From Pseudomonadota bacterium (GTDB lineage Bacteria; Pseudomonadota; Alphaproteobacteria; UBA828; JAPUJA01): DNA of 26,282 nucleotides. The position numbers were made by a program, and so were the translations under genes. The stretch spans positions 1 to 26,282 of the forward strand of contig JAPUJA010000272.1 of NCBI GenBank assembly GCA_027296525.1, given 5' to 3'. Every line of letters begins with the position of its first letter. The first letter of the stretch is position 1. Of this stretch, positions 9,108 through 24,739 are shown in pieces. The notes beneath the pieces were generated by a model. The model was not told where the DNA came from and did not search any database. It worked only from the letters and a program-made list of their open reading frames with translations.

Positions 9108-12100
9108 TCTCGCTCGAGGATCTCTTTGGTGAACCGGGGACGCGCCTGATATCGAGCGCGCCGACGGGTTGCGACGCGTTCATCATCGGCCGCATCTCCC
9201 GGGCGCTGGCCCCCGTTACCGTCCTTCATGTTGCGCGAGACGATGTCCGGCTCGCACGCATGGCCGACGCGCTCCAATTCTTCGCGCCCGAGGCAGGCCG
9301 GCTCACCTTTCCCGCATGGGACTGCCAGCCCTACGATCGCATCTCGCCCCGTGCCGACATCGCGAGCCGCCGCCTGGAGACTCTGGCCCGCCTGGCCCAG
9401 CCCGAGGCCAACGGCGACGGGTCGAGCCGCGTCGTGCTTACGACCATCAACGCGCTCCTGCAGCGCGTGCCGCCGCGTGAGCTCATCGCCGGCAAGCTCT
9501 TGACCGTTTCGCCCGGGAGCACGTTCTCCCGCGAGCGGCTGATCGATTACCTCTTGAGCAACGGCTACAGCTCGGCGGGGACCGTCGTCGAGGCCGGCGA
9601 GTACGCCGTGCGGGGCGGTCTCATCGATCTTTTCCCTCCGGGGGCGAGCGACCCCATCCGACTCGATTTCTTCGGCGAGACCATCGAGTCGATGCGCCGT
9701 TTCGATGCCGCGACCCAGCGCAGCAAGGAATCGGTCGATGAGCTTCGGCTGTTTCCGGTCAGCGAGCTGTTCACCGATCCCGAAACACGCGCCCGTTTCA
9801 AGACCGGGTATCACGAGCTCTTCGGAGCCGTCATGGGCGACGATCCGCTCTACGAGTCGATCTCCGCCGGTCGGAAGTATCCCGGCATGGAGCACTGGTT
9901 GCCGCTCTTCCACGAACGCCTGGAGACGCTCTTCGATTACCTGCCCGATGCGCTCATCACCCTCGACCATCTGGTCGAAGATTCTCGGGATGCGCGTATC
10001 GCGACGATCGTGGATCACTATGAGGCCCGCCTTGAGGCGCCGGAGGCGGCCGTCGGCGGGACGGTTCCGGCCTATAACCCGGTTCCGCCCGAGCGACTCT
10101 ACCTGACAGCCAGGGAATGGGATGAACGGATGGCCGCGCGTGCGGTCGCGCAATTTTTTCCGTTCGCGCGTCCACCGGTCGAAGGCGAGCGCATCTTCGA
10201 CGCCGGGGGCAAGCAAGCCGGCGATTTTTCCGCCGAGCGCGCGGAGGCCGGCGGCGTCCTGTTCGATGCCGTGGCCCGTGCGATCGAGAACCACCGGCGG
10301 CAGGGAAAACACGTGGTCATCGCCGCCCACAGCGCCGGCACCCTCGACCGGCTGCGCAAGCTGTTGAGCGGCCACGGGCTGCCCGATCCGCCCCAGGTGG
10401 AGACCTGGGCCGAGGTCGCGGCGATGGCGGAACCATCCCTGGCGCTCGCGCTGCTTCCCCTCGAACACGGTTTCGAGACCGCCGAGTTCATCGTCATCGG
10501 CGAGCAGGACATCCTCGGCGATCGCCTGATCCGCCGTCCCACCCGAAAGCGGCGCTCGGAAGACTTCCTGGCGAGCGCCTCGGAGATCTCAAAGGGCGAT
10601 CTGGTTGTGCATATGGAGCATGGCATTGGGCGTTTCGACGGCTTGGCGATCCTCGAGGTGGCCGGCGCGCGACACGACTGCTTGCGCCTGCTTTATGACG
10701 GCGGCGATCGGCTTTTTCTCCCGGCCGAAAATATCGAGGTCCTGTCGCGCTACGGATCAGAGGATCAACCCGTGGTGCTCGACAAGCTGGGAGGAGCCTC
10801 CTGGCAGGCGCGGACATCGCGTCTGAAGCGGCGGATCCGCGATATGGCGGACGAGCTCGTCCGCATCGCGGCCGAGCGTACCTTGAAGCCAGCACCCCGC
10901 TTGGCGCCGCAGGACGGTCTCTACGAGGAGTTCTGCGCGCGTTTCCCGCACACCGAGACCGAAGATCAGGCACAGGCGATCGACGAGACGCTCAGCGATT
11001 TGGCGTCGGGTCGGCCGATGGACCGCTTGATTTGCGGCGACGTCGGTTTCGGCAAAACCGAAGTGGCCTTGCGCGCGGCATTTGTCACCGCAATGGCGGG
11101 AAAGCAAATCGCCGTCGTCGTGCCGACGACGCTGCTCTGCCGGCAACATTTTGAGACCTTCCGCGCGCGCTTCACAGGCCTCCCGGTGAACATCGCTCCG
11201 CTCTCGCGGCTGGTCCCGGCGAAGCGAACGGCTGAGGTGAAGGCGGGGCTCGCCACAGGCGAAATCGATATCGTAATCGGCACGCACGCGCTCTTGAGCA
11301 AGCAAATGAGCTTTCACGATCTCGGCCTTCTCGTGATCGATGAAGAGCAGCATTTCGGCGTCACCCACAAGGAACGTCTGAAACAGCTCAAGAGCAATGT
11401 CCATGTGCTGGCCATGACGGCCACCCCGATACCTCGAACGTTGCAACTCGCGCTGAGCGGCGTGCGTGAAATGAGCGTGATCGCGACCCCGCCGGTCGAT
11501 CGCCTGGCCGTGCGTACCTATATCCTCCCATTCGATGCCGTGGCGATCCGCGACGCCCTGCTGCGCGAACATTATCGAAGCGGCCAGTCGTTCTATGTCT
11601 GCCCGCGGATCTCCGATATCGAACGGGTCGCTCAACGGGTGCGCCGGCTCGTGCCGGAAGTGAAGGTCGCAACCGCCCATGGCCGCATGCCCGCGCGCGC
11701 CCTCGAGGACGTGATGACCGCCTACTATGACGGTGCCTATGACGTGCTCGTGGTGACGGCGATCATCGAGTCAGGCCTCGATATCCCGGCGGCAAACACG
11801 ATGATCATTCACCGCGCCGACATGTTCGGTCTCGCGCAGCTTTACCAGCTGCGCGGACGGATCGGCCGTGCCAAGGTGCGCGCCTACGCTTACCTGACGC
11901 TCGAACCCGAGCGCTCGATCACGGCGGCGGCGGAGAAACGTCTCGGCGTCCTGCACAAGCTCGACAGCCTGGGCGCGGGCTTCAACCTGGCGAGCTACGA
12001 TCTCGATATTCGCGGCGCCGGAAACCTGCTGGGCGCCGAGCAATCGGGGCACATCCGCGAGGTCGGTATCGAGCTCTATCAGCATCTCATCGAGCAGGCC

Positions 12101-12631
12101 GTCGCCGAGGCACGGCAAGAAGCCGGCGTCGCGACCCACGTGCCCCGTGTGGCGTGGACGCCCCAGATCAATATCGGCGCCTCGGTCCTGATCCCGGAGG
12201 ACTACGTCTCCGATCTCGGCATCCGCCTTGGGCTCTATCGGCGCATCGCCCAGCTCGAAGCGCGCGACGAGATCGACGCCTTCGCCGCCGAGCTCGCGGA
12301 TCGCTTCGGTCCGGTGCCCGACGAGGTCAATCATCTGCTCGAGATCGTGGCGATCAAGCATCTCTGCCGTGAGGCCGGGGTCGAAAAGATCGAGGCCGGG
12401 CCCAAGGGCGCCTCACTCACCTTCCGCGACAAGGTGTTTGCCGCACCCGAACGGCTCGTCGGCTTCATCGCCGATCCCGTCAATCGGATGAATCTGCGCC
12501 CGGACTCGACTCTCGTGGCGCGCCGGACCTGGGGCAGCGCAGCCGAACGGCTCGAAGGCGCGAGCAACCTGCTGGGCGAGCTCGTCGCGCTCGCGCGTTC
12601 CGACGAGGCCCAGGACGTCGGGGTGGCCTAG
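9104..12631 (+). CDS. mfd: Transcription-repair coupling factor Mfd
   Basis: UvrB-like N-terminus (FPAWDCQPYDRISP), RID (DLVVHMEHGIGRF), GDVGFGKT, DEEQHFG, QLYQLRGRIGR, DLDIRGAGNLLG; GTG start overlaps sdhE TGA (GTGA). Confidence 0.97.
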   Translation: MISLEDLFGEPGTRLISSAPTGCDAFIIGRISRALAPVTVLHVARDDVRLARMADALQFFAPEAGRLTFPAWDCQPYDRISPRADIASRRLETLARLAQPEANGDGSSRVVLTTINALLQRVPPRELIAGKLLTVSPGSTFSRERLIDYLLSNGYSSAGTVVEAGEYAVRGGLIDLFPPGASDPIRLDFFGETIESMRRFDAATQRSKESVDELRLFPVSELFTDPETRARFKTGYHELFGAVMGDDPLYESISAGRKYPGMEHWLPLFHERLETLFDYLPDALITLDHLVEDSRDARIATIVDHYEARLEAPEAAVGGTVPAYNPVPPERLYLTAREWDERMAARAVAQFFPFARPPVEGERIFDAGGKQAGDFSAERAEAGGVLFDAVARAIENHRRQGKHVVIAAHSAGTLDRLRKLLSGHGLPDPPQVETWAEVAAMAEPSLALALLPLEHGFETAEFIVIGEQDILGDRLIRRPTRKRRSEDFLASASEISKGDLVVHMEHGIGRFDGLAILEVAGARHDCLRLLYDGGDRLFLPAENIEVLSRYGSEDQPVVLDKLGGASWQARTSRLKRRIRDMADELVRIAAERTLKPAPRLAPQDGLYEEFCARFPHTETEDQAQAIDETLSDLASGRPMDRLICGDVGFGKTEVALRAAFVTAMAGKQIAVVVPTTLLCRQHFETFRARFTGLPVNIAPLSRLVPAKRTAEVKAGLATGEIDIVIGTHALLSKQMSFHDLGLLVIDEEQHFGVTHKERLKQLKSNVHVLAMTATPIPRTLQLALSGVREMSVIATPPVDRLAVRTYILPFDAVAIRDALLREHYRSGQSFYVCPRISDIERVAQRVRRLVPEVKVATAHGRMPARALEDVMTAYYDGAYDVLVVTAIIESGLDIPAANTMIIHRADMFGLAQLYQLRGRIGRAKVRAYAYLTLEPERSITAAAEKRLGVLHKLDSLGAGFNLASYDLDIRGAGNLLGAEQSGHIREVGIELYQHLIEQAVAEARQEAGVATHVPRVAWTPQINIGASVLIPEDYVSDLGIRLGLYRRIAQLEARDEIDAFAAELADRFGPVPDEVNHLLEIVAIKHLCREAGVEKIEAGPKGASLTFRDKVFAAPERLVGFIADPVNRMNLRPDSTLVARRTWGSAAERLEGASNLLGELVALARSDEAQDVGVA

Positions 12632-14346
12632 GAGCAACCTCGGCCGAGATGCGCGTAGGCCGGCAGGGTGGTCAGGCGATCGTCCTCGAGCGCGCCTCCG
12701 ACGGTGAAGTGGTACAGGCTCTGCCACTCCTCCGACCCGAGGCCGAGGAGACGATGGACGAGATCGTCGAAATAGCAGCCGATGCCGGTCGCGCGGACAC
12801 CCGCCGCCTCGGCCTGAAGATAGAGAGCCTGGCCGATCAAGCCGCACTCCCAGAACAGGCGACGGTAGGCCCAGGAACCCTCCTCTTCGAGAGTGCGGGC
12901 AAAATCGGCCACCATCGCCAGGCTGAAGGCGCCGTCGGCGGCGATCTCCTGGAGGCAACTTGCTTGGGCCGCCGCCGGGCGGAAATCGCCGAGCGCGAGC
13001 GCGTAGAGCGGCAGGGACGCGAGCTCCACATCGAGCCAGGCGAACTTCCGATGGCAGGCGGCGCGCAGCGCCGAGCGCCGATCCCCATCGCGCATCAGCA
13101 TGTAGAGGCCCGCGGGCAGATCCTCGACCCGGTGGACGAACAGGGCGAGCTGCACCCGGGCCGGGAAGCCGACGCTTTGCCAGGGCGGCCTCGCGGGGTC
13201 GGGCAGGGCGGCCGCCATCATGGCGACGAAATTCGAGCGCGCCAGGCCGGTTTGCCCATCCAGGGCGACGGCGCTCCGGCGTCGGCGGATGAGCCGCGCC
13301 GCGCTTAGGCCGTCCGATCGGGCGGGGGTGGGCGCGGCGGCCAACGGGGGCGCAGCCGTGAGCGGCGTCGAGTCGCCGGTCCGGGGTTTGGTCGCGGCGC
13401 GGGCGACGACCGGGATCTCCGACCAGTCGACGTGGCTCTGGCTCAGCCGGTTGGCCTGCCCGCGCCACGCGCCCTGGCGCACGACGCCGTCGAGCGGCAA
13501 CGGAACGCTTTCGCTGCCTGTGGGATTCGTGAGGACAGCCGCCAGCAGCTCGGGCGCTTCCGGCTCGGCCTGGGCGAAATCGCCCTGCCGTTCGAGGCCG
13601 AGCAGGCCTGAAATGTCGGCGTCCGAAACATGCGAAAGCAACCACACCCGCCAGCCGAGGGCCGCCGCCGCGAAACTCAACGCGCCCAGGGCATGGCCCA
13701 CATCGTGCTGGCAGTAGCGATAGGCCCGCTGGCCGTATTTCCAGGCCTCCCGCCAATGGACCGAGCTGAGGCCCGCGAGGAAGGCCAGCGCCGGAGGATC
13801 GCCTGAGAGCGCGCTCCAGGCATCGGCGCCGAGCCGCGCGCGCTCCTCGAGGGCGTGCTCGCGGGGCGCGTAGTGGTAGACGCCGGGCCGATCGGAGATG
13901 CCGGGCAAAGCCGGAATGAGCAGATAGCCTTCGGTCGGATGGAGGTTGCCGCTCGAGGGATTGCCGCGCAGAGCCCATTTCGTGCCCTGAAAGCTCTTCC
14001 ATGCCGTGATCCCGAGGCTGAGCTCGAGAAATAGCCCGAGCGTCTGGCGCGTCAGGGGGCGCGGGCGGATGGCGCCGGGTCTGACGAGGGCGTCGAAGAG
14101 CGGCGTGTCGTCATCCGCGGCCAGGGGAAGCGGCACCTCGTGCGCGCCGGCGAATCGGCGAAACGGCTCCGGCTGATTCGCCCAGTCGAGATAACCGGGG
14201 CCTTCCGCATAATGACCGAGGGCATGCTTGCTGAGCCGGTGATAACGCCACACCGCCGCAAGGGGCGCCGATCGCCCGGGGCGTCGCTCGCTGGCCTTCG
14301 AGGCCGTGCTCAAGGACTCGCTCGCCGCCGGTATCCGGTCTTGCAA
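12628..14346 (-). CDS. SagB/ThcOx-type nitroreductase-superfamily flavoprotein with two nitroreductase domains
   Basis: YHRLSKH...YLDWANQPEPFRRF, LRGNPSSGNLHPTEGY, WKYGQRAYRYCQHDVGH, second domain LIRRRRSA...YRRLFWECGLIGQALYLQAEAAGVRATGIGCYFDD. Start (TTG 14346) uncertain, no clear SD. Confidence 0.85.
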   Translation of the reverse strand: MQDRIPAASESLSTASKASERRPGRSAPLAAVWRYHRLSKHALGHYAEGPGYLDWANQPEPFRRFAGAHEVPLPLAADDDTPLFDALVRPGAIRPRPLTRQTLGLFLELSLGITAWKSFQGTKWALRGNPSSGNLHPTEGYLLIPALPGISDRPGVYHYAPREHALEERARLGADAWSALSGDPPALAFLAGLSSVHWREAWKYGQRAYRYCQHDVGHALGALSFAAAALGWRVWLLSHVSDADISGLLGLERQGDFAQAEPEAPELLAAVLTNPTGSESVPLPLDGVVRQGAWRGQANRLSQSHVDWSEIPVVARAATKPRTGDSTPLTAAPPLAAAPTPARSDGLSAARLIRRRRSAVALDGQTGLARSNFVAMMAAALPDPARPPWQSVGFPARVQLALFVHRVEDLPAGLYMLMRDGDRRSALRAACHRKFAWLDVELASLPLYALALGDFRPAAAQASCLQEIAADGAFSLAMVADFARTLEEEGSWAYRRLFWECGLIGQALYLQAEAAGVRATGIGCYFDDLVHRLLGLGSEEWQSLYHFTVGGALEDDRLTTLPAYAHLGRGCS

Positions 14347-15014: not shown

Positions 15015-16181
15015 ATGGAACCGAGAAGCATAACTATCCTGGGTTCGACGGGATCGGTCGGCTGTAACACGATCGATCTGATCGAACGTAATCCGGCGGC
15101 TTATCGGATCGAAGCCCTGACGGCCAATCAAAACGTCGAGGTTCTCGCCAAGCAGGCGAGGCGTCTTAAGCCGCGCTTGGCGGTGATCACCGAGGAATCG
15201 AAATACGAAGCGCTCAAGGACGCTCTTTGGGGAACCAACATCGCCGTGGCCTCGGGGCGTGCCGCGTTGCGCGAGGCGGCCGAGATGCCCGCCGATTGGG
15301 TCATGGCGGCGATCGTCGGCGCCGCCGGGCTCGAACCCACACTCGCCGCGATATCTCGGGGCGTAATCGTCGCTCTGGCCAACAAGGAATGCCTTGCCTG
15401 CGCCGGCGAGCTCGTGATGCAGGAAGTACGCGCGAACGGCACCACCCTGCTGCCCGTGGATTCCGAGCACAATGCGATTTTTCAGGTGTTCGAGTTCGAG
15501 CGCCACGAATCGGTGGAGCGGCTGATCCTGACCGCTTCGGGTGGACCTTTCCGCTCGATGGACCGGGATCAGATGGCGTCGGTCACGGCCGAACAGGCGG
15601 TCGCCCATCCGAACTGGGATATGGGCGCGAAGATCTCCGTCGATTCGGCCACGATGATGAACAAGGGCCTCGAAATGATCGAGGCCTATCATTTGTTCCC
15701 GGTCGACGCCGAGCAGATCGAGGTGGTGATCCACCCGCAATCGGTGGTTCACAGCCTGGTCGCTTATATCGACGGATCGGTCCTCGCACAGCTCGGTTCG
15801 CCGGACATGCGCACCCCCATCGCCTACACCCTCGGATGGCCCAAGCGCATCCCCGCGCCGGCGCCCAAGCTCGATCTGGCGGCGCTTGGAAGCCTGACCT
15901 TCGAGCGGCCCGATGCCGAGCGTTTTCCGGCCCTCAGGCTCGCGCACGCCGCCCTCGAAACGGGCGGTGGGGCGCCGACCATACTCAACGCCGCCAACGA
16001 GATCGCCGTGCATGGCTTTCTGAAGGGCGAGATCGGCTTTCTCCAGATCACCGAGGTCGTCGAACACACTCTCGGCAAGCTGAACAACGGGAGCTTGGCA
16101 TCATTGGACGACGTGATCGCGTTGGACCAGGACGCCCGCGCGAAGGCGCAGGCCTATATGGCCAACGGAATGTCGCGATAG
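15015..16181 (+). CDS. dxr: 1-deoxy-D-xylulose 5-phosphate reductoisomerase
   Basis: ILGSTGSVG, ALANKE, PVDSEHNAI, LTASGGPFR, HPNWDMGAKISVDSATMMNKGLE, LNAANEIAV. Confidence 0.97.
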   Translation: MEPRSITILGSTGSVGCNTIDLIERNPAAYRIEALTANQNVEVLAKQARRLKPRLAVITEESKYEALKDALWGTNIAVASGRAALREAAEMPADWVMAAIVGAAGLEPTLAAISRGVIVALANKECLACAGELVMQEVRANGTTLLPVDSEHNAIFQVFEFERHESVERLILTASGGPFRSMDRDQMASVTAEQAVAHPNWDMGAKISVDSATMMNKGLEMIEAYHLFPVDAEQIEVVIHPQSVVHSLVAYIDGSVLAQLGSPDMRTPIAYTLGWPKRIPAPAPKLDLAALGSLTFERPDAERFPALRLAHAALETGGGAPTILNAANEIAVHGFLKGEIGFLQITEVVEHTLGKLNNGSLASLDDVIALDQDARAKAQAYMANGMSR

Positions 16182-16221: not shown

Positions 16222-17148
16222 ATGACAACCACCGAGCAAAACGAAGCCCTGAGGGCGGGGGAACCGCTTGCGGGGGTCGTGCGCGGGGGCGAATCGTCGG
16301 GCGCCGGCGGACGCGCGCAGCTCGATTCCGACGCCGTCCGGCGTCTCATCGTCGAGAACACCGAGAACTTTCCGGTCGGCTCCTTTCTCATTCCGCCCGA
16401 TTGTCGGCCCCATGTCTACGCCTTCTACCAATATGCGCGGAACGCCGACGATATTGCTGATTCGGCGACACTTTCTGTGGAGGAGAAGCTTCGCCGCCTG
16501 AACCCGGCCCACGACGCGCTGGGGGTCGATGAAGGGGCGCTTCCCGATTGGGCGGTGTCCTACCACCGCAGCCTGATCGAAACCGGCAACACGCCTCGGC
16601 ACGGGCGCGACCTCCTCTCCGCCTTCATCCAGGACGTCACCAAGCTCCGTTACCGCGATTGGGACGACCTGGTGGACTATTGCATGCGTTCGGCCGCATC
16701 CGTCGGGCGCGTGATGATGGACATCCACGGCGAAACCGATGCCGATTTCGAGGGCTCGGACGCGCTTTGCAACGCGCTCCAGGTGCTCAATCACCTGCAG
16801 GACTGCAAGAAGGATTATCTCAACCTGGATCGCGTCTATCTGCCGGAACCCTGGCTCCAGGAAGAAGGCGGCTCGGTGGAGGATCTCGCCTTGCCTTCGG
16901 CGACGCCCGCGGTGCGCCGGGTGATCGAGCGTTGTCTGGACGGGACCGACGATTTGCTCGCCCGCGCCCAGACCATGCCGCCGTCCGTCCGCCGCCGGGG
17001 GCTTCGTCTCGAGAGCGCGCTCATCCTCGCGCTGGCCAAGAAATTATCTGGGCGCCTGCGCCGTGAGGACCCGCTGGCCCGGCGCGTCAAGGTGTCGAAG
17101 GCCGGTTGGATTCTGTGCGGCGTGAAGGGCGCGCTCACCTCATGGTAG
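16222..17148 (+). CDS. hpnC: Squalene synthase subunit HpnC (hydroxysqualene synthase)
   Basis: ENFPVGSFL N-terminal signature, YARNADDIAD, LLSAFIQDVTKLRYRDWDDLVDYCMRSAASVGR, LQVLNHLQD...DRVYLP. Confidence 0.9.
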   Translation: MTTTEQNEALRAGEPLAGVVRGGESSGAGGRAQLDSDAVRRLIVENTENFPVGSFLIPPDCRPHVYAFYQYARNADDIADSATLSVEEKLRRLNPAHDALGVDEGALPDWAVSYHRSLIETGNTPRHGRDLLSAFIQDVTKLRYRDWDDLVDYCMRSAASVGRVMMDIHGETDADFEGSDALCNALQVLNHLQDCKKDYLNLDRVYLPEPWLQEEGGSVEDLALPSATPAVRRVIERCLDGTDDLLARAQTMPPSVRRRGLRLESALILALAKKLSGRLRREDPLARRVKVSKAGWILCGVKGALTSW

Positions 17149-18011
17149 CGGCGCTCGAACCGCGCACAGACGACGATCCCAAGCGCTATGTCGCCAAGGT
17201 CGTACGGGCCTCAGGCAGTTCCTTCGCCAGGCCGATGCTGGTGCTGCCGCGAGCCAAACGCGAGTCGATGCTCGCGCTCTATGCCTTTTGCCGCGAGACG
17301 GACGACGTCGTCGACGAAATCGAAGATCCCGAGGAGGCCTTACGCCAACTCGACGCTTGGCGTGCGGAGCTCGATGCCCTTTATCGCGGGGTGCCGAGCC
17401 ATCCGGTGACCCGCGCTCTGGCCGGACCGGTCGCCGCCCTGGATCTCCCGAAACGCTACTTTACCGAGATTCTCAATGGCTTCGACATGGATCGGTCCGG
17501 CGCCATGTGTCGCCCGGACATGGAGACTCTCGAGCGCTACTGTTTTTGCGTGGCGGGCTGCGTGGGTCTCATCTCGGTCGAGATTTTTGGCTACCAGGAT
17601 CGGCGCATCCCTGAATTCGCGGAGCAGCTGGGCCACGCCTTTCAGCTCACCAACATCCTGCGCGATATCGAGGAGGACGCCCGGCGCGGCCGGATCTATC
17701 TGCCGATCGAGCTTCTGCAACGCCACGGGCTGGCGGAGCTTCCGCCCGAGGAGCTGTTGGCGGCCGCGGCTTTGCCAGAGGTGTGCGCCGAGCTCGGCGC
17801 GCTTGCGCGTCGGCGCTTCGCCGCGGCGGCCACGGCGCTCGCGCCTTCCGAAATCCGTTCGATGCGCCCGGCCCTCCTGATGCGGGCGATCTACGAAACC
17901 TACCTCGATCGCATGGAGGCAAGCGGCTGGCGCCTGAGCGGCGACGAGGTTCGCCTGGGCCGGGCGAGCAAGCTCTGGCTGCTGCTGCGCGCCTTCATCA
18001 CCACCATCTGA
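17142..18011 (+). CDS. hpnD: Presqualene diphosphate synthase HpnD
   Basis: SGSSF...LYAFCRETDDVVD, YCFCVAGCVG, LGHAFQLTNILRDIEEDARRGRIYLP; ATG 17142 overlaps the hpnC end (TAG 17146-17148). Confidence 0.9.
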   Translation: MVAALEPRTDDDPKRYVAKVVRASGSSFARPMLVLPRAKRESMLALYAFCRETDDVVDEIEDPEEALRQLDAWRAELDALYRGVPSHPVTRALAGPVAALDLPKRYFTEILNGFDMDRSGAMCRPDMETLERYCFCVAGCVGLISVEIFGYQDRRIPEFAEQLGHAFQLTNILRDIEEDARRGRIYLPIELLQRHGLAELPPEELLAAAALPEVCAELGALARRRFAAAATALAPSEIRSMRPALLMRAIYETYLDRMEASGWRLSGDEVRLGRASKLWLLLRAFITTI

Positions 18012-18105: not shown

Positions 18106-18870
18106 TCAGACCTTATATTCGTAACGCTCGCCCGGCGCGCGCTCGCAATCGGGCGGGTAACTCCTTCGCTTCGCGGCGAAATATCCGACCCGGTGATCGC
18201 CTTCGGACAAGCGATTGTAGCTCGCGTAGATCGCCCGCCTCGCCCATCGACTCCGATTCGGGGCCGAACGGTGGGGAACAAACGAATCGAAGAACACGAC
18301 ATCGCCCGGCTCCATCGGACAGGGAACGAACGTTATATCCTTGATTTCCTCGTCCCCGAGGGGGTGCCACATCTTGCCGATGAGGCCCCGGTCATGGCAG
18401 CCGGGGGCGATTTCGAGACAGCCGTTCGCCTCTATCGAGAGGTCGACGGCGATGGCCGCGGTGATGAAAAGGCTCCCGTAATCCTCCCAGCCGGCTTGCA
18501 TGTCCTGGTGCGGCTCGAACCCCCGGCTCTGCGGCAGCTTGAAATTGATCTTCTCCTTGAACAGGACCGCCTGCTCGCCGAAGAGCTCGGAAACAGACCC
18601 CAAGAGACGATCTCCACTCAACAGGGAGTCGAACTCCCGATGGTAAGGAACGAAGTTCTCGATGCGATCAAGCACCCGCTTGTTCGGGTCATCCACCGAC
18701 GCCTCGCGGTAGACCATGTGCCTGTTCGGAACTTCGGGGAGATGTTCGAGCTCATCGACCCAGAGACGGATTTCCTCCGCTTCGTCCGCATCGAACACGC
18801 CGGTCATGACCAAGTAGCCGTCACGCCGGAAAGCCATCAACTCTTCTTCGGTCAGGATGGTTCGCCGCAT
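18106..18870 (-). CDS. PhyH-family Fe(II)/2-oxoglutarate dioxygenase, PhnY (2-aminoethylphosphonate dioxygenase)-like
   Basis: HxD (EPHQD) and distal His (FVPHRS) triad; GEQAVLFKEKINFK and YNRLSEG...YF..KR..YPPDCER segments resemble the PhnY subfamily as I recall it. ATG 18870 follows GGAGGG; ATG 18897 is an alternative. Confidence 0.85.
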   Translation of the reverse strand: MRRTILTEEELMAFRRDGYLVMTGVFDADEAEEIRLWVDELEHLPEVPNRHMVYREASVDDPNKRVLDRIENFVPYHREFDSLLSGDRLLGSVSELFGEQAVLFKEKINFKLPQSRGFEPHQDMQAGWEDYGSLFITAAIAVDLSIEANGCLEIAPGCHDRGLIGKMWHPLGDEEIKDITFVPCPMEPGDVVFFDSFVPHRSAPNRSRWARRAIYASYNRLSEGDHRVGYFAAKRRSYPPDCERAPGERYEYKV

Positions 18871-18919
18871 CTGGTCCCTCCGCAGATTCCAGATCATGAG
18901 ACACCGCCGCTGGCAGAAC

Positions 18920-18947
18920 CTTTAACAGAAACCCGATCTCTTTAACA
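18920..18947. repeat. 8-bp direct repeat CTTTAACA x2 at 20-bp period upstream of the dioxygenase
   Basis: Copies at 18920-18927 and 18940-18947 in the 175-nt gap between the cytidylyltransferase stop and the dioxygenase start. Confidence 0.6.
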
Positions 18948-19045
18948 CCGGCAAAAGCCGGATGCCTCGCCTAGAGGGCTCTCGAAATGGCCTGGATGCG
19001 AGCGAAGGTGAGCCGTCAGAGGGCAAGTCATGCATTCACAACCCG

Positions 19046-19795
19046 TTACCCGCCCTCGCCGATCAGGCGCGGGAGTATTTCTTCGCGGGCGCGGACGACG
19101 TCCTCGGGAAAGTCTATCTCCGTCCAAGGGAGGTCCGTTATGTCTTCGAAACCGAATGTCCCGGCCGGCGAGTGAAGCAGCAACCGGCGCAAGGCTTCTT
19201 CGTAGCCCTCGTCGCGCTGTCCCGCCTCGATGAGCGCCGCGTTGGCCGTCGAGAGCGCTACCGCCATGGGCGGGGCCAACCGGAAGAACCCCACCGATTC
19301 GCCCACGAAATCGAAGGGCGCCTCCACGCGCCGGCTGAATTCCACCAGTTGTCCGCCTCGAACGGCGAGCTTCATGGGCTCGTCTCCGGCTTCGAAACTC
19401 CGGTCGAGCAGGAAGCAATTGCGATGGCGCGTCCGTTTCAGGGATTCGAGCATGCGCCGGTCGTACAAAACGTCCGCGTCCATCAGGAGAATGTCGTCGC
19501 CGCATGTCAGCGCTTGAGCCGCCGCCTGAAGGGTGACGACGCTGCCCGCCTGGTAATCGGGATTGTGCGCGAGGATGACACGGGCGCCGGCGTCGAGACG
19601 CTCAAGCTCTGCGGCGATGAGATCCGCCTTGTAACCGACGGCGACAACGACATCGTGAACGGCGATTCGCCGCAACTCCGTCAGGTGACGCTCGAGCAGC
19701 GTGCGCCCGCCGAAAGAGAGGAGCGCCTTCGGCATGCCGCCGAATTCTCCCGAGAGCCGGTTTCCCACCCCGGCGGCCATGATAAGAGCCATCAT
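19046..19795 (-). CDS. Phosphocholine/phosphonate cytidylyltransferase-like NTP transferase (LicC/PntC/IPCT type)
   Basis: ALIMAAGVGNRL...PKALL nucleotidyltransferase motif, MDADVLY DxD-type motif, GESVGFF, C-terminal PWTEIDFPED; single domain without sugar-phosphate transferase hexapeptide repeats. Confidence 0.88.
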   Translation of the reverse strand: MMALIMAAGVGNRLSGEFGGMPKALLSFGGRTLLERHLTELRRIAVHDVVVAVGYKADLIAAELERLDAGARVILAHNPDYQAGSVVTLQAAAQALTCGDDILLMDADVLYDRRMLESLKRTRHRNCFLLDRSFEAGDEPMKLAVRGGQLVEFSRRVEAPFDFVGESVGFFRLAPPMAVALSTANAALIEAGQRDEGYEEALRRLLLHSPAGTFGFEDITDLPWTEIDFPEDVVRAREEILPRLIGEGG

Positions 19796-19901
19796 CGAAG
19801 CGTGTTATTCCTCCGCCCCAGGTCCTGACGGGCAAGGCCTTCTTTCACTTTGTCGAGCTAATCGCTAACATAACCGCCAAAAAGATCGTAAGGGCGAATC
19901 T

Positions 19902-20570
19902 GTGACGAACGAAGGGAAAAGCGGCGCGTCCGACCCTCCCGCAGAGCCGAATGGTGCCATTCTTTGGGATCAGCGGCTCGCGCGCCTGATGGTGCGCCCG
20001 CTCATCGACAGCTCGGTGACACCGAATCAGATCACGACCGTGCGCCTTCTGACGGGTCTCGCGGCATGCGCGCTCATCGCCTGGGGCGGCGATCGAAGCT
20101 GGCTCAACTGGGGAGCGGCCCTCTTCATCTTCTCGAACCTGCTCGATCACGCCGACGGCGAGCTCGCGCGCCTCACCGGAAAATCGAGCCCGTTCGGACA
20201 TTACTTCGATCTCGCCAGTGACGCTCTCATTCACGCGCTGTTCTTCAGCGCCCTGGGGTTCGCGGTCGCCGGCGGCCGGATCGGCGATTGGGCCATCGTC
20301 TTGGGAACAGTGGCGACCTGCGGCATCGGCACGCTCTTCTGGGTCTTTTCTCACCGAATGAAACTCTATGGCAAAGCCGAGCTCCAGCCGCGCTGGGCGG
20401 GTTTCGAGCTCGAGGACATCATGTATCTGCTGGCGCCGGTCGTTTGGCTCGGCTGGGAACTTCCGCTCTTGGTGATCGCCGGGGTGATGTCGCCGATCGC
20501 CGCGCTCGCTCTGTTGTGGCTGCATCGCCGGACGCTGTTCTCGGCCTCGCGCCGGGAGGGGCTATCGTGA
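19902..20570 (+). CDS. CDP-alcohol phosphotransferase family membrane protein
   Basis: VTPNQITT plus an intact DxxDGxxAR...GxxxDxxxD motif (LDHADGELARLTGKSSPFGHYFDLASD); several hydrophobic segments; GTG start. Confidence 0.92.
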   Translation: MTNEGKSGASDPPAEPNGAILWDQRLARLMVRPLIDSSVTPNQITTVRLLTGLAACALIAWGGDRSWLNWGAALFIFSNLLDHADGELARLTGKSSPFGHYFDLASDALIHALFFSALGFAVAGGRIGDWAIVLGTVATCGIGTLFWVFSHRMKLYGKAELQPRWAGFELEDIMYLLAPVVWLGWELPLLVIAGVMSPIAALALLWLHRRTLFSASRREGLS

Positions 20571-21553
20571 CGACCCTGGTGACCGGGGCCTCGGGCTTCG
20601 TTGGATCGGCGGTCGCCCGCCGAGTGCTTGCCGCCGGCCACCGGGTGCGTGTTCTCCTTCGCCCCGAGAGCGACCGGCGCAATCTCGAGGGCCTCGAGGT
20701 CGAAGTCGTGCACGGCGACCTGCTGGACCCGGATTCGCTCAAGCGGGCGGTAAAGGGGTGCGAGACGGTGTTTCACGTCGCCGCCGACTACCGTCTCTGG
20801 GTGCCGAAGCCCGAGAAGATGTACGCCGCAAACGTGCAGGGCAGCGTCGATCTTGCTCGCGCCGCAGCTGACGCGGGGGTCACGCGGATCGTCTATACGA
20901 GCAGCGTGGCGACGCTCGGACTCTCGCGCAACGGCACACCGTCCGACGAAGAGACACCATCGTGCCTCGAGGACATGATCGGCCATTACAAGCGCTCCAA
21001 ATTTCTCGCCGAGGCGGAGATGCGTCGTCTCGTGCGGAAGGAGGGGCTGCCGATCGTCATCGTCAACCCGTCGACGCCCGTAGGTCCGCGCGACGTGAAA
21101 CCGACGCCGACGGGCCGTCTCGTCCTCGAGGCCGCGGCCGGACGCATGCCGGCCTATGTCGATACCGGGCTCAACCTGGTCCATGTGGACGACGTGGCGG
21201 AGGGCCACCTGCTCGCGCTCGAACGCGGTCGAGTGGGCGAACGCTACGTGCTCGGCGGGACCAACATGAGCTTGCGTGAAATCCTTGCGGAAATTGCGGA
21301 TATCGCCGGCATCACGCCGCCCAAAATCCGTCTCTCGACCGGCGTCGTGCTTCCTATCGCCTACATTGCCGAAGGGATCGCGCGCCTCTCGGGACGCGAA
21401 CCGCGAGTCACGGTGGACGGCGTGCGCATGGCACGCAAGAAGATGTACTACTCCGCCGGCAAGGCGGCCCGCGAATTGGGTTTGACGGCGCGGCCCGTGC
21501 GCGAAGCCCTGGCGGACGCGGTCGCCTGGTTTCGCGACTCCGGCTATTGCTAA
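20567..21553 (+). CDS. hpnA: Hopanoid-associated NAD(P)-dependent epimerase/dehydratase HpnA (extended SDR)
   Basis: VTGASGFVG, VFHVAADYRLWVP, YKRSK (YxxxK), VNPSTPVGPRDVKPTPTG, MPAYVDTGLNLVHVDDVAEGH; GTG 20567 after GGGAGGGG, overlapping the upstream TGA. Confidence 0.9.
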   Translation: MTTLVTGASGFVGSAVARRVLAAGHRVRVLLRPESDRRNLEGLEVEVVHGDLLDPDSLKRAVKGCETVFHVAADYRLWVPKPEKMYAANVQGSVDLARAAADAGVTRIVYTSSVATLGLSRNGTPSDEETPSCLEDMIGHYKRSKFLAEAEMRRLVRKEGLPIVIVNPSTPVGPRDVKPTPTGRLVLEAAAGRMPAYVDTGLNLVHVDDVAEGHLLALERGRVGERYVLGGTNMSLREILAEIADIAGITPPKIRLSTGVVLPIAYIAEGIARLSGREPRVTVDGVRMARKKMYYSAGKAARELGLTARPVREALADAVAWFRDSGYC

Positions 21554-21725
21554 AGAACGTCCGGCCAGGTCCGCGACGACCGGCGTTCCCGCCGCCCTTC
21601 CGGTTGCATTTTTATCCCGAACCCCCAACACTGCGGCTTCGCTGGCGGTGCACGGCCCTTCGAAGGCGATAGGCGCCGGTTGGAATGCCTGGATATCATC
21701 CCAAAGGGGCCCGAGCCGGGATCCG

Positions 21726-22655
21726 ATGCGTTACATTTCGATCCTCGCCGTGGTTTTGTCGATCTGCCTCGGCCCGATGAGTGGGGGGCTTCGGGCGGGG
21801 ACGGCTTTGCCCGCGCCCGTTGCCGAACAGCTGCAGGCGGCCGCCGCGCGGGCCAGCCGGATGAGCCACGAAACGGCCTTCGGAGAGGCGGGGATTCGCC
21901 GCGCCCGGGCGGAAATGAGCACCGTCGTGATCAGCGCCATCGCGGTTCATCCCGAAGCGACCTACGCCATCGTCCACGAAGCGGTACGCTTGACACCCTC
22001 CTTGGCGCCGGCGGTCGTCGAGTCGGCGAGTGTCGCCTATCCGGGATACGCCGCACAGATTCACGGCGCGGCCGAGGGTGTTCCATCCTCGTTTTTTGCC
22101 CAGGCGACGACCTTGGAACCGGACCACGCCGCCGCGAGCTCGCGGGAGAGCGCGCCGTTCGAGCGGCCGGGCTTCTTCGGCATCAGCGAACTCTATGTTG
22201 GGGCACTGACCCATGACACCGGCGTGTTCGGCCGTTCGGAGGAAGACAGCGGTCCGGACATTGATCTTGGCGTCCGCTTCGCGGCGCTTCGCGGCGAGTT
22301 CTGGGATCTGATCGCCGCGCCGCGTCCCCATCTCGGCCTGCATGTGAACACGCAAGGAGACACCAGTCAGCTGTTTACCGGACTGACCTGGACCTTCGAG
22401 CTCGGTTACGGCGTCTTCGTCGGGGCCGATTTCGGCCTCGCCGTGCATGACGGCGAGCTCAGAACGAGCGACGACTCGACGAAGGAGCTGGGCCTCAGGG
22501 TCTTGTTCCGCGAGGCCGCCGAGATCGGCTTTCGCATCACGGACCGGAACTCCGTCTCGGTCGTCCTCGACCATATTTCCAACGGGGGGCTCGCCGATGA
22601 GAACGAGGGCCTTGATAATTTTGGCCTGCGTTACAGCTACATCTTCGGTGGCTGA
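21726..22655 (+). CDS. PagL-like lipid A deacylase / acyloxyacyl hydrolase beta-barrel with N-terminal helical repeat extension
   Basis: Signal peptide MRYISILAVVLSICLG..., PRPHLG...NTQGDTSQ...GLTW, LGLRVLFRE, DHISNGGLADENEGLD (His, Ser+2, acidic residue +14 as in the PagL triad), aromatic last strand LRYSYIF. Confidence 0.8.
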   Translation: MRYISILAVVLSICLGPMSGGLRAGTALPAPVAEQLQAAAARASRMSHETAFGEAGIRRARAEMSTVVISAIAVHPEATYAIVHEAVRLTPSLAPAVVESASVAYPGYAAQIHGAAEGVPSSFFAQATTLEPDHAAASSRESAPFERPGFFGISELYVGALTHDTGVFGRSEEDSGPDIDLGVRFAALRGEFWDLIAAPRPHLGLHVNTQGDTSQLFTGLTWTFELGYGVFVGADFGLAVHDGELRTSDDSTKELGLRVLFREAAEIGFRITDRNSVSVVLDHISNGGLADENEGLDNFGLRYSYIFGG

Positions 22656-22819: not shown

Positions 22820-24739
22820 TTGCCTGAGACGCCATTACTGGATCGCGTAAAGCTCCCGTTGGACATGCGCGATATGACGCTCAACGAGCTGAAACAGCTC
22901 GCGGGCGAACTCCGGGAGGAGACGGTCGACGCCGTGTCCAACACCGGGGGACATCTCGGTGCCGGGCTGGGCGTCGTCGAGCTCACGGTCGCGTTGCACC
23001 ACGTCTTCAACACGCCCGAGGACCGCCTCATTTGGGACGTCGGCCACCAGGCCTATCCCCACAAGATCCTGACGGGCCGGCGCGACCGAATCCGGACCGT
23101 CCGCCAGCCCGGAGGTCTCTACGGCTTTACGAAGCGCTCGGAGAGCGAATATGACCCCTTCGGCGCGGCGCATTCCTCGACCTCGATCTCGGCGGGTCTC
23201 GGCATGGCGGTGGCCCGCGATCTTTCCGGCGGCAAGTGCCATGTCATCGCGGTCATCGGTGACGGCGCGATGTCGGCGGGCATGGCGTACGAGGCGATGA
23301 ACAACGCCGGATCGATGGACACCCGACTCATCGTCGTCCTCAATGACAACAAGATGTCCATCGCGCCCTCACTCGGCGCGTTGAACGCCTATCTGTCCCG
23401 CCTGTTGTCGTCGCATTCGTTCCGTTCCTTCCGGGACAAGGCGCGGGAAGTCGCCAGCAAGCTTCCACGCGCACTCGAAACGGCGGCCAAGCGCGCCGAG
23501 GAGTATGCGCGCGGCATGGCCGTGGGCGGTACGCTGTTCGAGGAACTCGGATTCTTTTATATCGGTCCGATCGATGGCCACAATTTGGACCATCTCTTGC
23601 CCATCCTGAAGAACGTCCGCGATGACGAAACCACGCCGGGCCCGGTGTTGATCCACGTGGTCACCCAGAAGGGGCACGGCTATCCGCCCGCCGAGAAGGC
23701 GGCGGACAAATTTCACGGCGTCAGCAAGTTTGACGTGGTCACGGGCGAACAAGCGAAGAAGAAAGGCAAGGCGCCGTCATACACCTCCGTCTTTGCGAAG
23801 AGTCTGATTGCCGAAGCCGAGAAGGACGAGAAGATCGTCGCCCTGACCGCCGCGATGCCGGATGGCACGGGTATCGACAAGTTCATCGAGCGTTTTCCCG
23901 ATCGCGGGTTCGACGTCGGGATCGCGGAGCAGCACGGCGTGACCTTCGCCGCCGGTCTTGCGGCCCAGGGATTTAAGCCGTTTGCCACGATCTACTCGAC
24001 CTTCTTGCAACGCGCCTACGATCAAGTCGTGCATGACGTCGCGATCCAGCGCCTTCCCGTCCGCTTCGCGATCGACCGGGCCGGCTTGGTGGGAGCCGAC
24101 GGGCCGACACATGCCGGCTCTTACGACATCACTTATTTGTCGACATTGCCCGGCTTCGTCGTGATGGCTGCGGCGGATGAAGGCGAACTCGTGCACATGA
24201 TCAGAACGGCGGTTGCGATCGACGATCGCCCTTCGGCTTTTCGTTATCCGCGCGGTGAAGGGATCGGCGTCCCGCTGCCGGAGGAACCCAAAGCCTTGGA
24301 GATCGGTAAGGGGCGCATCCTGCGCGAAGGCACGGCGCTCGCGATTCTCTCCTTCGGGGCACGTCTGCATGAGTGTTTCAAGGCGGCGGACGAGCTCGCG
24401 GCGCGGGGCTTCTCGGCGAGCGTCGCGGATGCACGCTTCGCCAAACCTCTGGACGAAGACCTCATTCGCCGGCTCGTTCGTGAACATGAGGTCCTGATTA
24501 CGATCGAAGAGGGCGCGATCGGAGGCTTCAGCGCCCATGTGTTGCACTTCCTGGCAAACGCCGGATTGCTGGATCAGGGCCTTAAGTTTCGCCCGATGAT
24601 CCTGCCCGACCGCTTCATCGTGCACGGCACGCCGGCCGGGATGTACGAGGATGCCGGTCTGACCGCCTCCGATATCGTCAGCACAGCCCTTTCCGCCCTC
24701 GGGGTCGAAGGCAAAGCCGAACTGGCCCGCGGGGCCTGA
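22820..24739 (+). CDS. dxs: 1-deoxy-D-xylulose-5-phosphate synthase
   Basis: [47 protein letters not shown]...NDN (TPP motif), [33 protein letters not shown]; TTG start after GAGGGGGG. Confidence 0.97.

Follow-up and report, generated by a model that had tools for sequence, protein, structure and literature searches.

A cytidylyltransferase and CDP-alcohol phosphotransferase pair in an alphaproteobacterial hopanoid cluster as the predicted head-group half of a phosphonate lipid pathway

Why should a gene cluster for hopanoids carry a cytidylyltransferase and a CDP-alcohol phosphotransferase? We know of no characterised hpn function, in the canonical clusters of Zymomonas, Rhodopseudomonas and Burkholderia, that uses either kind of enzyme. 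The question is raised by a stretch of 26,282 nucleotides (the window; positions 1 to 26,282 of contig JAPUJA010000272.1, assembly GCA_027296525.1; about 65% G+C), which comes from a 79% complete metagenome-assembled genome (MAG) of UBA828, an order of uncultured Alphaproteobacteria. Here a LicC/PntC-like cytidylyltransferase (NTPt) and a small CDP-alcohol phosphotransferase (CDPOH), with a PhyH-family dioxygenase beside them, are encoded among hpnC, hpnD, hpnA, shc and dxs, all canonical hopanoid cluster genes. An earlier reading of the DNA, made from its letters alone (the sequence-only reading), proposed that these enzymes are a new system that decorates a hopanoid or companion lipid with a phosphate or phosphonate. 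Our analysis suggests, with a probability of roughly 0.5, that NTPt and CDPOH, with the dioxygenase as an optional addition, form the activation and transfer half of a lipid pathway for a phosphonate of the 2-aminoethylphosphonate (AEP) type, wired into the hopanoid locus and with a hopanoid as the likeliest acceptor. The novelty claimed for the system does not hold, as the gene set has already been catalogued (PMC8942020, PMC5987646): to judge from its gene content, the module is the head-group half of the uncharacterised cluster type called 'Group 1 phosphonolipid' by Yu et al. in 2013 and 'Burkholderiales_CDP-OH' by Li and Horsman in 2022 (PMC8942020).

All three enzymes keep the catalytic motifs that had been recognised in them. 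In CDPOH the motif D82xxD85G86xxA89R90-x8-G99xxxD103xxxD107 is intact, with each motif residue invariant in 10 orthologues, and at least four segments of 19 residues reach a mean hydropathy of at least 1.45, the level we took to mark a polytopic membrane protein. CDPOH is the predicted head-group transferase. NTPt has the G-rich loop AAGVGNRL at residues 7–14 plus K23, and the dioxygenase the Fe(II)/2-oxoglutarate triad H130-x-D132...H209. The divergence of the NTPt and CDPOH genes across 106 nt was also read correctly. This gap is presumed to be a bidirectional promoter region; scanning the region for promoters and terminators yielded no more than shuffled sequence would, with no convincing sigma-70 match wholly inside the gap. 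On the other side, the TGA stop codon of CDPOH (20568–20570) overlaps the GTG start codon of hpnA (20567–20569) as GTGA, and by this overlap hpnA is translationally coupled to CDPOH. A predicted complex of CDPOH and HpnA scored 0.00, which counts neither for nor against an interaction. As to expression, there was no clear RNA run; one run labelled 'metatranscriptomic' has short contigs on NTPt, CDPOH and hpnA, for which DNA carry-over is possible.

That NTPt and CDPOH work as one activation and transfer pair is borne out by their adjacency in every lineage and by a predicted protein that fuses CDPOH to an NTP_transf_3 domain (P0254). What the pair activates can be approached through the placement of NTPt among LicC, PntC and IPCT, a check that the sequence-only reading had proposed, and PntC comes out closest. 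The best solved relative of NTPt is T. denticola PntC (Tde1415, 6PD1), which aligns over its full length (E 2.5e-13 from the single sequence), and a profile of ten NTPt sequences finds Tde-PntC with an E-value of 2e-24, as against 9e-12 for LicC and 3e-10 for IPCT. NTPt is furthermore 52% identical to the NTPt encoded directly before the gene for the phosphoenolpyruvate (PEP) mutase fusion (ppm) in Nostocales HT-58-2 and in a gammaproteobacterial MAG. The pocket of NTPt is mixed: Asp106 occupies the position of Glu104 in Tde-PntC, where LicC also has Asp, and the equivalent of Glu196 is kept as E199. On these similarities, NTPt is predicted to make a donor in which the phosphonate is joined to cytidine monophosphate (CMP). 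Proximity to ppm, by which PntC enzymes have been recognised (PMC6697681), is lacking in the window but is found for orthologues in other phyla. Recent paralogy with the nucleotidyltransferase domain that is fused to Ppm was considered and ruled out, as the two share 26% identity over 95 residues.

The pair is accompanied by phosphonate synthesis genes both in the order and beyond it. Of the 41 genomes of the order, 38 have a PEP mutase that passes the curated cut-off, versus one of 14 control genomes, and the mutase was found in all ten of the tested CDPOH carriers outside the order in which ppm was not already in the locus. The mutase of the order carries a nucleotidyltransferase domain fused at its C-terminus, and phosphonopyruvate decarboxylase (Ppd) is encoded next. 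The source genome has a second contig, C268 (1–1273, 1334–1699), whose opening bases encode the C-terminal 37 residues of the ppm fusion; a full ppd comes next, which overlaps the remnant as ATGA and encodes a protein 71% identical to the Ppd of relatives. Because C268 begins inside the fusion gene, ppm is cut by the contig end and not absent. AEP transaminase (AEPT) is bona fide in relatives (PRK13479, 492 bits against a cut-off of 296), where its gene is without an obvious phosphonatase gene beside it, and a homologue occurs in 38 of the 41 genomes. In Nostoc, Nevskia, Cupriavidus, Gemmatimonadota and Salinisphaera, orthologous NTPt-CDPOH pairs stand directly beside the ppm fusion, ppd and AEPT. 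The kinship with PntC, the co-occurrence of PEP mutase, the ppm remnant with its ppd and the AEPT of relatives point to an AEP-type phosphonate as the donor of the pair, which makes it the only one of the donors listed in the sequence-only reading to fit; choline-kinase-family genes and inositol-phosphate synthase do not track the pair.

The sequence-only reading stood or fell with recurrent linkage to hopanoid genes, and such linkage is seen across phyla. Within the order, all 41 sampled genomes have a CDPOH orthologue (43–59% identity), and the divergent NTPt and CDPOH unit has hpnA directly downstream in each of the 19 loci that came from the collection scan. The unit is mostly found between hpnD and a run of PagL-like gene, dxs, shc and hpnH; in one genus the other hopanoid genes are elsewhere, yet NTPt, CDPOH and hpnA are together. 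Since no sampled genome of the order lacks the unit, the arrangement with hpnA is not a matter of chance. Adjacency of CDPOH and hpnA recurs in Salinisphaera, Chromatiales, another gammaproteobacterial MAG, another alphaproteobacterium and Nitrospira, with the gene order hpnN-CDPOH-hpnA in four lineages, hpnN-CDPOH in Gemmatimonadota and CDPOH-hpnA in Nitrospira. More broadly, orthologues of the pair lie among shc, hpnN, hpnA, hpnL and hpnH in Gammaproteobacteria, Cyanobacteria, Gemmatimonadota and Nitrospira.

Several of these loci combine hopanoid and phosphonate genes. Salinisphaera aquimarina KCTC 52640 has shc-hpnG-hpnN-CDPOH-hpnA-HpnL-like-NTPt-ppmNT-ppd-AEPT-hpnH on one strand (ppmNT being the ppm fusion), and the gammaproteobacterial MAG has SQS-shc-hpnG-PhyH-hpnN-hpnA-hpnL-like-NTPt-ppmNT-ppd. 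The cluster of Nostocales HT-58-2 comprises, in this order, true hpnJ, hpnI, a B12 radical-SAM gene (SAM, S-adenosylmethionine), CDPOH, PhyH, NTPt, ppmNT, ppd, AEPT, a Rieske oxygenase gene, hpnH and hpnA. In a metagenomic operon (L124) with the order ppmNT-ppd-HpnN-HpnL-NTPt-CDPOH, four of the five gene junctions are 4-nt overlaps, and its HpnN and HpnL exceed their cut-offs (874 bits versus 752, and 309 versus 196).

An alignment scan with one genome per species found CDPOH orthologues in Paraburkholderia, Cupriavidus, Robbsia, Nevskia, Salinisphaera, Chromatiales, Nostoc, Scytonema, Chlorogloeopsis, Gemmatimonadota and Nitrospira. Together they make up a small, well-delimited family: out of 1.84 billion representatives, 174 representative clusters match at E<=1e-30. 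By maximum-likelihood phylogeny, the window protein belongs to one family with the transferases of ppm clusters in Burkholderiaceae, Nevskia and Nostoc, and copies coupled to hpnA interleave with copies coupled to ppm such that at least five changes are needed; by this interleaving, the two kinds of copies are members of one family. Outside the order, shc was present in all 15 carrier genomes tested, against a background of 49 of 400 sampled Pseudomonadota (about 12%), or 28 of 212 genera. The 15 carriers (three of Burkholderiaceae type, two Cupriavidus, Robbsia, two Nevskia, one of another proteobacterial family, Chromatiales, the gammaproteobacterial MAG, Gemmatimonadota, Nitrospira, Caldora and Chlorogloeopsis) represent roughly ten independent lineages, although relatives are not independent samples. 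The sample of 400 Pseudomonadota genomes contains four CDPOH carriers, too few for a statistical profile, and further carriers were reached through their loci. Nine of ten CDPOH carriers tested have hpnH. Fusions, all as predicted proteins, add to the link with hopanoid genes: CDPOH is joined to a bona fide HpnN (806 bits against 752) and, in both domain orders, to a bona fide HpnL (334 and 260 bits against 196), and there are four further fusions with LPG_synthase_TM. The HpnN fusion and one of the HpnL fusions are uninterrupted open reading frames (ORFs), each on a single short contig, and are therefore supportive but not conclusive.

We propose a pathway that would begin with the conversion of PEP to phosphonopyruvate by the Ppm-nucleotidyltransferase fusion, followed by that of phosphonopyruvate to phosphonoacetaldehyde by Ppd and of phosphonoacetaldehyde to AEP by AEPT. 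The PhyH enzyme of the source organism probably adds a hydroxyl group at C1 of the phosphonate. NTPt would then combine cytidine triphosphate (CTP) with the phosphonate to give CMP-phosphonate, and CDPOH would move the phosphonyl group to a lipid hydroxyl with release of CMP. The likeliest acceptor is a side-chain hydroxyl of a bacteriohopanepolyol; an extended hopanoid is favoured because shc and hpnH accompany CDPOH so strictly, because CDPOH stands between hpnN and hpnA and is translationally coupled to the latter, and because of its fusions. The resulting phosphono-hopanoid would be handled by HpnL-like and HpnN-like proteins, and a homologue of HpnL (46% identical to a bona fide HpnL) is encoded on contig C162 of the source genome. 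What the sequences show is the identity of the genes, their motifs and conservation, the co-occurrences and the fusions; we infer at what point in the route hydroxylation takes place, the substrate of NTPt and, above all, the acceptor. For the product of the Group 1 clusters as a whole, the most abundant family of phosphonate gene clusters in bacteria, the odds seem to us evenly balanced that it is a bacteriohopanepolyol bearing AEP, 1-hydroxylated in the source organism, that is made by CDPOH and handled by HpnL and HpnN. Such a conjugate of bacteriohopanetetrol and AEP (C37H68NO6P) would have a calculated [M+H]+ of 654.4857, and its 1-hydroxy-AEP form one of 670.4806.

A number of observations weigh against a phosphono-hopanoid. 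The sequence of a CDP-alcohol phosphotransferase does not reveal which acceptor it uses, and the specificity of NTPt for AEP is not assured, given the Asp at the Glu104 position (PMC6697681). The fusion of CDPOH with HpnN is known from one short contig, and a hopanoid gene lies within 10 kb of CDPOH in just four of 39 cyanobacterial loci and one of 13 Burkholderiales loci. Whole ppm, AEPT, hpnH and hpnN were not recovered in the 79% complete source genome. In the source family, ppm and ppd sit among glycan genes (rmlA/B and a Wzy-type ligase gene), and the phosphonate may also, or instead, be destined for glycans. Finally, we found no phosphorus-containing hopanoid described in the searchable literature, and the published readings of the gene set assume a diacylglycerol phosphonolipid (PMC5987646).

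The last of these is the main rival and the default of the literature. The same donor pathway would here serve diacylglycerol or another acyl lipid, giving an ordinary phosphonolipid that travels with hopanoids, co-regulated and co-exported but not covalently joined to them, as both lipids condition the outer membrane. This is what has been predicted for the gene set (PMC5987646 Fig. 7; the Group 1 'phosphonolipids' of PMC8942020), it agrees with the scarcity of hopanoid genes near most Nostoc and Burkholderiales loci, and CDP-alcohol phosphotransferases that use soluble CDP or CMP donors and diacylglycerol acceptors are well established (as in the CHPT1/CEPT1 matches). However, such a lipid would not need shc, which nevertheless accompanies the transferase in every carrier tested outside the order and in the whole order; nor would it account for a transferase that lies between hpnN and hpnA, is coupled to hpnA and is fused to HpnN or HpnL in predicted proteins. 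Moreover, no diacylglycerol-AEP lipid has been reported from Burkholderia carriers, though ppm is expressed there (PMC8942020). We therefore regard the diacylglycerol lipid as a serious contender, but as a rather unlikely one.

It is improbable that the phosphonate goes to a non-hopanoid acceptor of the envelope, such as a component of lipid A or lipopolysaccharide or a polyprenol-linked glycan, and that the hopanoid genes are nearby because of a shared outer-membrane programme. The conserved PagL-like neighbour, the rml and Wzy-type ligase genes around ppm-ppd in the source family and the fact that most characterised PntC pathways decorate glycans (PMC6697681) would suit this explanation, but glycan phosphonylation is thought to use LicD-type enzymes rather than CDP-alcohol phosphotransferases (PMC6697681), and the strict co-occurrence with shc and hpnH and the HpnN and HpnL fusions would be left unexplained. 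Slightly less probable again is a phosphate ester as the substrate of the pair (phosphocholine, phosphoethanolamine or inositol phosphate), in LicC/Kennedy-like or IPCT/DIPPS-like chemistry: NCBI names NTPt homologues 'phosphocholine cytidylyltransferase family', both proteins give weak matches to the bifunctional IPCT/DIPPS model, the LicC-like Asp106 fits, and the source genome has choline-kinase-family genes and inositol-1-phosphate synthase, but the profile E-value of PntC is better than those of LicC and IPCT by some 12 to 14 orders of magnitude, ppm tracks the pair in every lineage tested, and neither donor route co-occurs with the pair, which is kept in the complete genome G009 with no choline-kinase-family gene and in the near-complete genomes G001, G002 and G004, in which inositol-1-phosphate synthase was not found.

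The PhyH dioxygenase is an accessory to the module and not a core component, as which it was rejected: its occurrence is sporadic, and close homologues are also found in unrelated contexts. The sequence-only reading had counted it as part of the system, but among five genomes of the family that were searched whole, a close homologue is present in three and lies inside the module only in the window and in G002; most genomes of the order have a module without the gene. In a sister genus a second CDPOH paralogue follows it, and in a third genome the PhyH homologue is at another locus. In the window 148 nt separate the gene from NTPt, which precedes it on the same strand, and the ATG at 18870 is the likelier start. 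The best NCBIfam match of the protein, over its whole length, is the methylphosphonate hydroxylase PhnY*, at 160.9 bits and so well short of the equivalog cut-off of 500. As neither the stretch from hpnD to NTPt nor the rest of the window encodes an HD-domain oxygenase of the PhnZ or TmpB type, the role of the enzyme would be biosynthetic rather than catabolic. Homologues with about 56% identity adjoin CDPOH/NTPt or hpnN in Nostocales HT-58-2 and the gammaproteobacterial MAG, and some homologues carry the JGI label 2-aminoethylphosphonate dioxygenase. Other homologues with 55–57% identity (among them L037/P0157 and L039/P0182, at 55–56%, one of the two from Methylomirabilota) sit in a conserved ADH_zinc-PhyH-MR_MLE context with no phosphonate gene nearby, which indicates that the subfamily is not confined to phosphonate pathways.

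Further genes recur around these loci. On C268, ppd is followed by a gene for a Wzy-type O-antigen ligase. A SAM methyltransferase gene is a conserved, convergent neighbour of ppd in sister genera (L033 12851-13762), with a partial match only in C268, and a different methyltransferase is encoded upstream of ppm in operon L124. The methyltransferase and ligase genes near ppm-ppd suggest N- or O-methylated phosphonates and a second, glycan, destination, and the smaller Asp106 of NTPt together with the methyltransferase neighbours makes a bulkier head group, such as hydroxylated or N-methylated AEP, possible. In several carriers the cluster or its vicinity contains two or three CDPOH paralogues (L011 12343-12789; L049 9772-10377 and 12687-13235; L122/L123, G314), and the predicted protein P0243 is a tandem double CDPOH of 407 residues, which suggests multiple acceptor positions or multiple donors. 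In most Nostoc clusters (L036 6738-8369; L054-L111), the gene directly upstream of CDPOH encodes a B12-binding radical-SAM protein with DUF4070. Its identification as hpnJ was rejected by NCBIfam, where its best match is a weak one to the PhpK P-methyltransferase family, and the protein could methylate a phosphonate or a hopanoid. The Rieske oxygenase encoded next to AEPT in the Nostocales cluster (L036 14775-15755, minus strand) is weakly similar to the sterol 4-beta-methyl oxidase SdmA, and the second-best NCBIfam match of HpnA is the sterol demethylase partner SdmB; a hopanoid-modifying pair similar to SdmA and SdmB is conceivable. A PagL-like gene follows hpnA in most loci of the order (its start in the window may be later than 21648), and in L124 a PagL gene (11363-11968, minus strand) abuts CDPOH, with a product 30% identical to the PagL-like protein of the window over about 106 residues. 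The PagL-like protein may belong to the system, which would hint at a link to the outer membrane or lipid A.

The features of the region are collected in Table 1. The module is bordered upstream by hpnC and hpnD and downstream by dxs and shc, with hpnA lying between these borders, and in the loci of relatives hpnH comes directly past shc. The sequence-only reading had four intact genes between hpnD and dxs-shc: their intactness and coordinates stand, but with the PagL-like gene after hpnA there are five. HpnC is marginal, falling just below its equivalog cut-off, and its ORF overlaps hpnD by 43 nt. Near-identical DNA is present in marine-sediment metagenomes.

Table 1. Genes and intergenic region of the hopanoid locus and its flank, in coordinates of the window.
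Feature	Position	Strand	Evidence and remarks
SagB-type (nitroreductase family) dehydrogenase gene	12628-14346	-	572 aa; between mfd and dxr
dxr	15015-16181	+	Three 1-deoxy-D-xylulose 5-phosphate (DXP) reductoisomerase Pfam domains; methylerythritol phosphate (MEP) pathway gene heading the hopanoid locus
hpnC	16222-17148	+	Squalene synthesis; TIGR03464, 249.4 bits (cut-off 250.45)
hpnD	17106-18011	+	Squalene synthesis; TIGR03465, 309 bits (cut-off 278.6)
PhyH-family Fe(II)/2-oxoglutarate dioxygenase gene, PhnY/PhnY*-like	18106-18897	-	Pfam PhyH, 89.5 bits
NTPt, LicC/PntC-like cytidylyltransferase gene	19046-19795	-	Pfam NTP_transf_3, 55.8 bits
Divergent intergenic region NTPt/CDPOH	19796-19901		Exactly 106 nt
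CDPOH, small polytopic CDP-alcohol phosphotransferase gene	19902-20570	+	Pfam CDP-OH_P_transf (PF01066), 56.4 bits (cut-off 22)
hpnA, hopanoid-associated short-chain dehydrogenase/reductase (SDR) 'sugar epimerase' gene	20567-21553	+	GTG start; TIGR03466, 512.3 bits (cut-off 367.65)
PagL-like outer-membrane protein gene	21648-22655	+	Pfam PagL, 59.7 bits over the C-terminal 80 residues
dxs	22820-24739	+	Downstream border together with shc
shc	24751 to window end (26282)	+	Downstream border; truncated by the window end

The hopanoid connection is the part that has been left undeveloped in the phosphonate literature; the analytical methods used for bacteriohopanepolyols would easily miss a zwitterionic phosphonate conjugate. 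What is new here is a split architecture across the order that keeps just the activation and transfer pair within the hopanoid cluster, a ppm remnant recovered from another contig, the counts of shc, hpnH and ppm among carriers, and the fusions of CDPOH with HpnN, HpnL and NTPt. We know of no function that has been assigned to HpnA or HpnL since they were named; if true, a phosphono-hopanoid would give the first functions to 'hopanoid-associated' proteins of the HpnL type and perhaps of the HpnA type. With a hopanoid as the acceptor, there would be a new class of membrane lipid that is also a precursor of geochemical biomarkers, and a sizeable share of biological C-P bond synthesis would be tied to hopanoid membranes. 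Were the acceptor diacylglycerol, the result would be a tightly co-inherited membrane programme of phosphonolipid and hopanoid. Culturable carriers make the question directly testable, among them Salinisphaera aquimarina KCTC 52640, Nevskia soli DSM 19509, Chlorogloeopsis fritschii PCC 6912, Nostoc, Cupriavidus and Paraburkholderia.

The individual enzymes can be compared with known systems. PntC (Tde1415, PDB 6PD1/6PD2; PMC6697681) shares with NTPt the LicC-like fold family, the full-length alignment and the equivalent of Glu196; in contrast to it, NTPt is stand-alone (Tde1415 is fused to a transaminase) and about 25–30% identical, has Asp106 for Glu104, and is without an adjacent ppm in the window. 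The 2-AEP dioxygenase PhnY and the methylphosphonate hydroxylase PhnY* have the PhyH fold and the HxD...H triad in common with the dioxygenase of the window, which differs in scoring 161 bits against 500 and in its lack of a PhnZ or TmpB partner. The same logic, a cytidylyltransferase followed by a CDP-alcohol phosphotransferase, underlies the IPCT/DIPPS route to di-myo-inositol phosphate in archaea and Thermotoga and the LicC/Kennedy route through CDP-choline, but the sequence matches to these are weak, their donor pathways do not co-occur with the pair, and the predicted donor here is a CMP-phosphonate. A physical linkage of hopanoid and phosphonate genes like that described here is on record for Roseomonas, in some of which shc is linked to ppm, 'suggesting an undiscovered terpene-phosphonate' (PMC8776678); this is the only such remark that we found in the literature, and the paper gives neither a pathway nor a product.

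The closest comparison is with Group 1 itself. This type makes up 36% of RefSeq ppm neighbourhoods, and a 1-hydroxy-AEP lipid has been predicted as its product, which was never characterised (PMC8942020); the same cluster has been drawn for a lichen Nostoc (PMC5987646). Group 1 clusters encode the Ppm-nucleotidyltransferase fusion, Ppd, AEPT, a 2-oxoglutarate oxygenase, a second, stand-alone PntC-like cytidylyltransferase, a small CDP-alcohol phosphotransferase and a membrane protein annotated as hpnL. The second PntC, transferase and HpnL-like families match those considered here, and CDPOH of the window falls in the same tree as the copies of Paraburkholderia, Cupriavidus and Nostoc, a match that names the type of gene set and not its function. 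Unlike the single Group 1 cluster, the set in the order is split over at least three loci, with ppm-ppd at a glycan-type locus and AEPT elsewhere, and only a few of its genomes have the oxygenase, whereas NTPt and CDPOH lie inside the hopanoid cluster of the window, with CDPOH coupled to hpnA.

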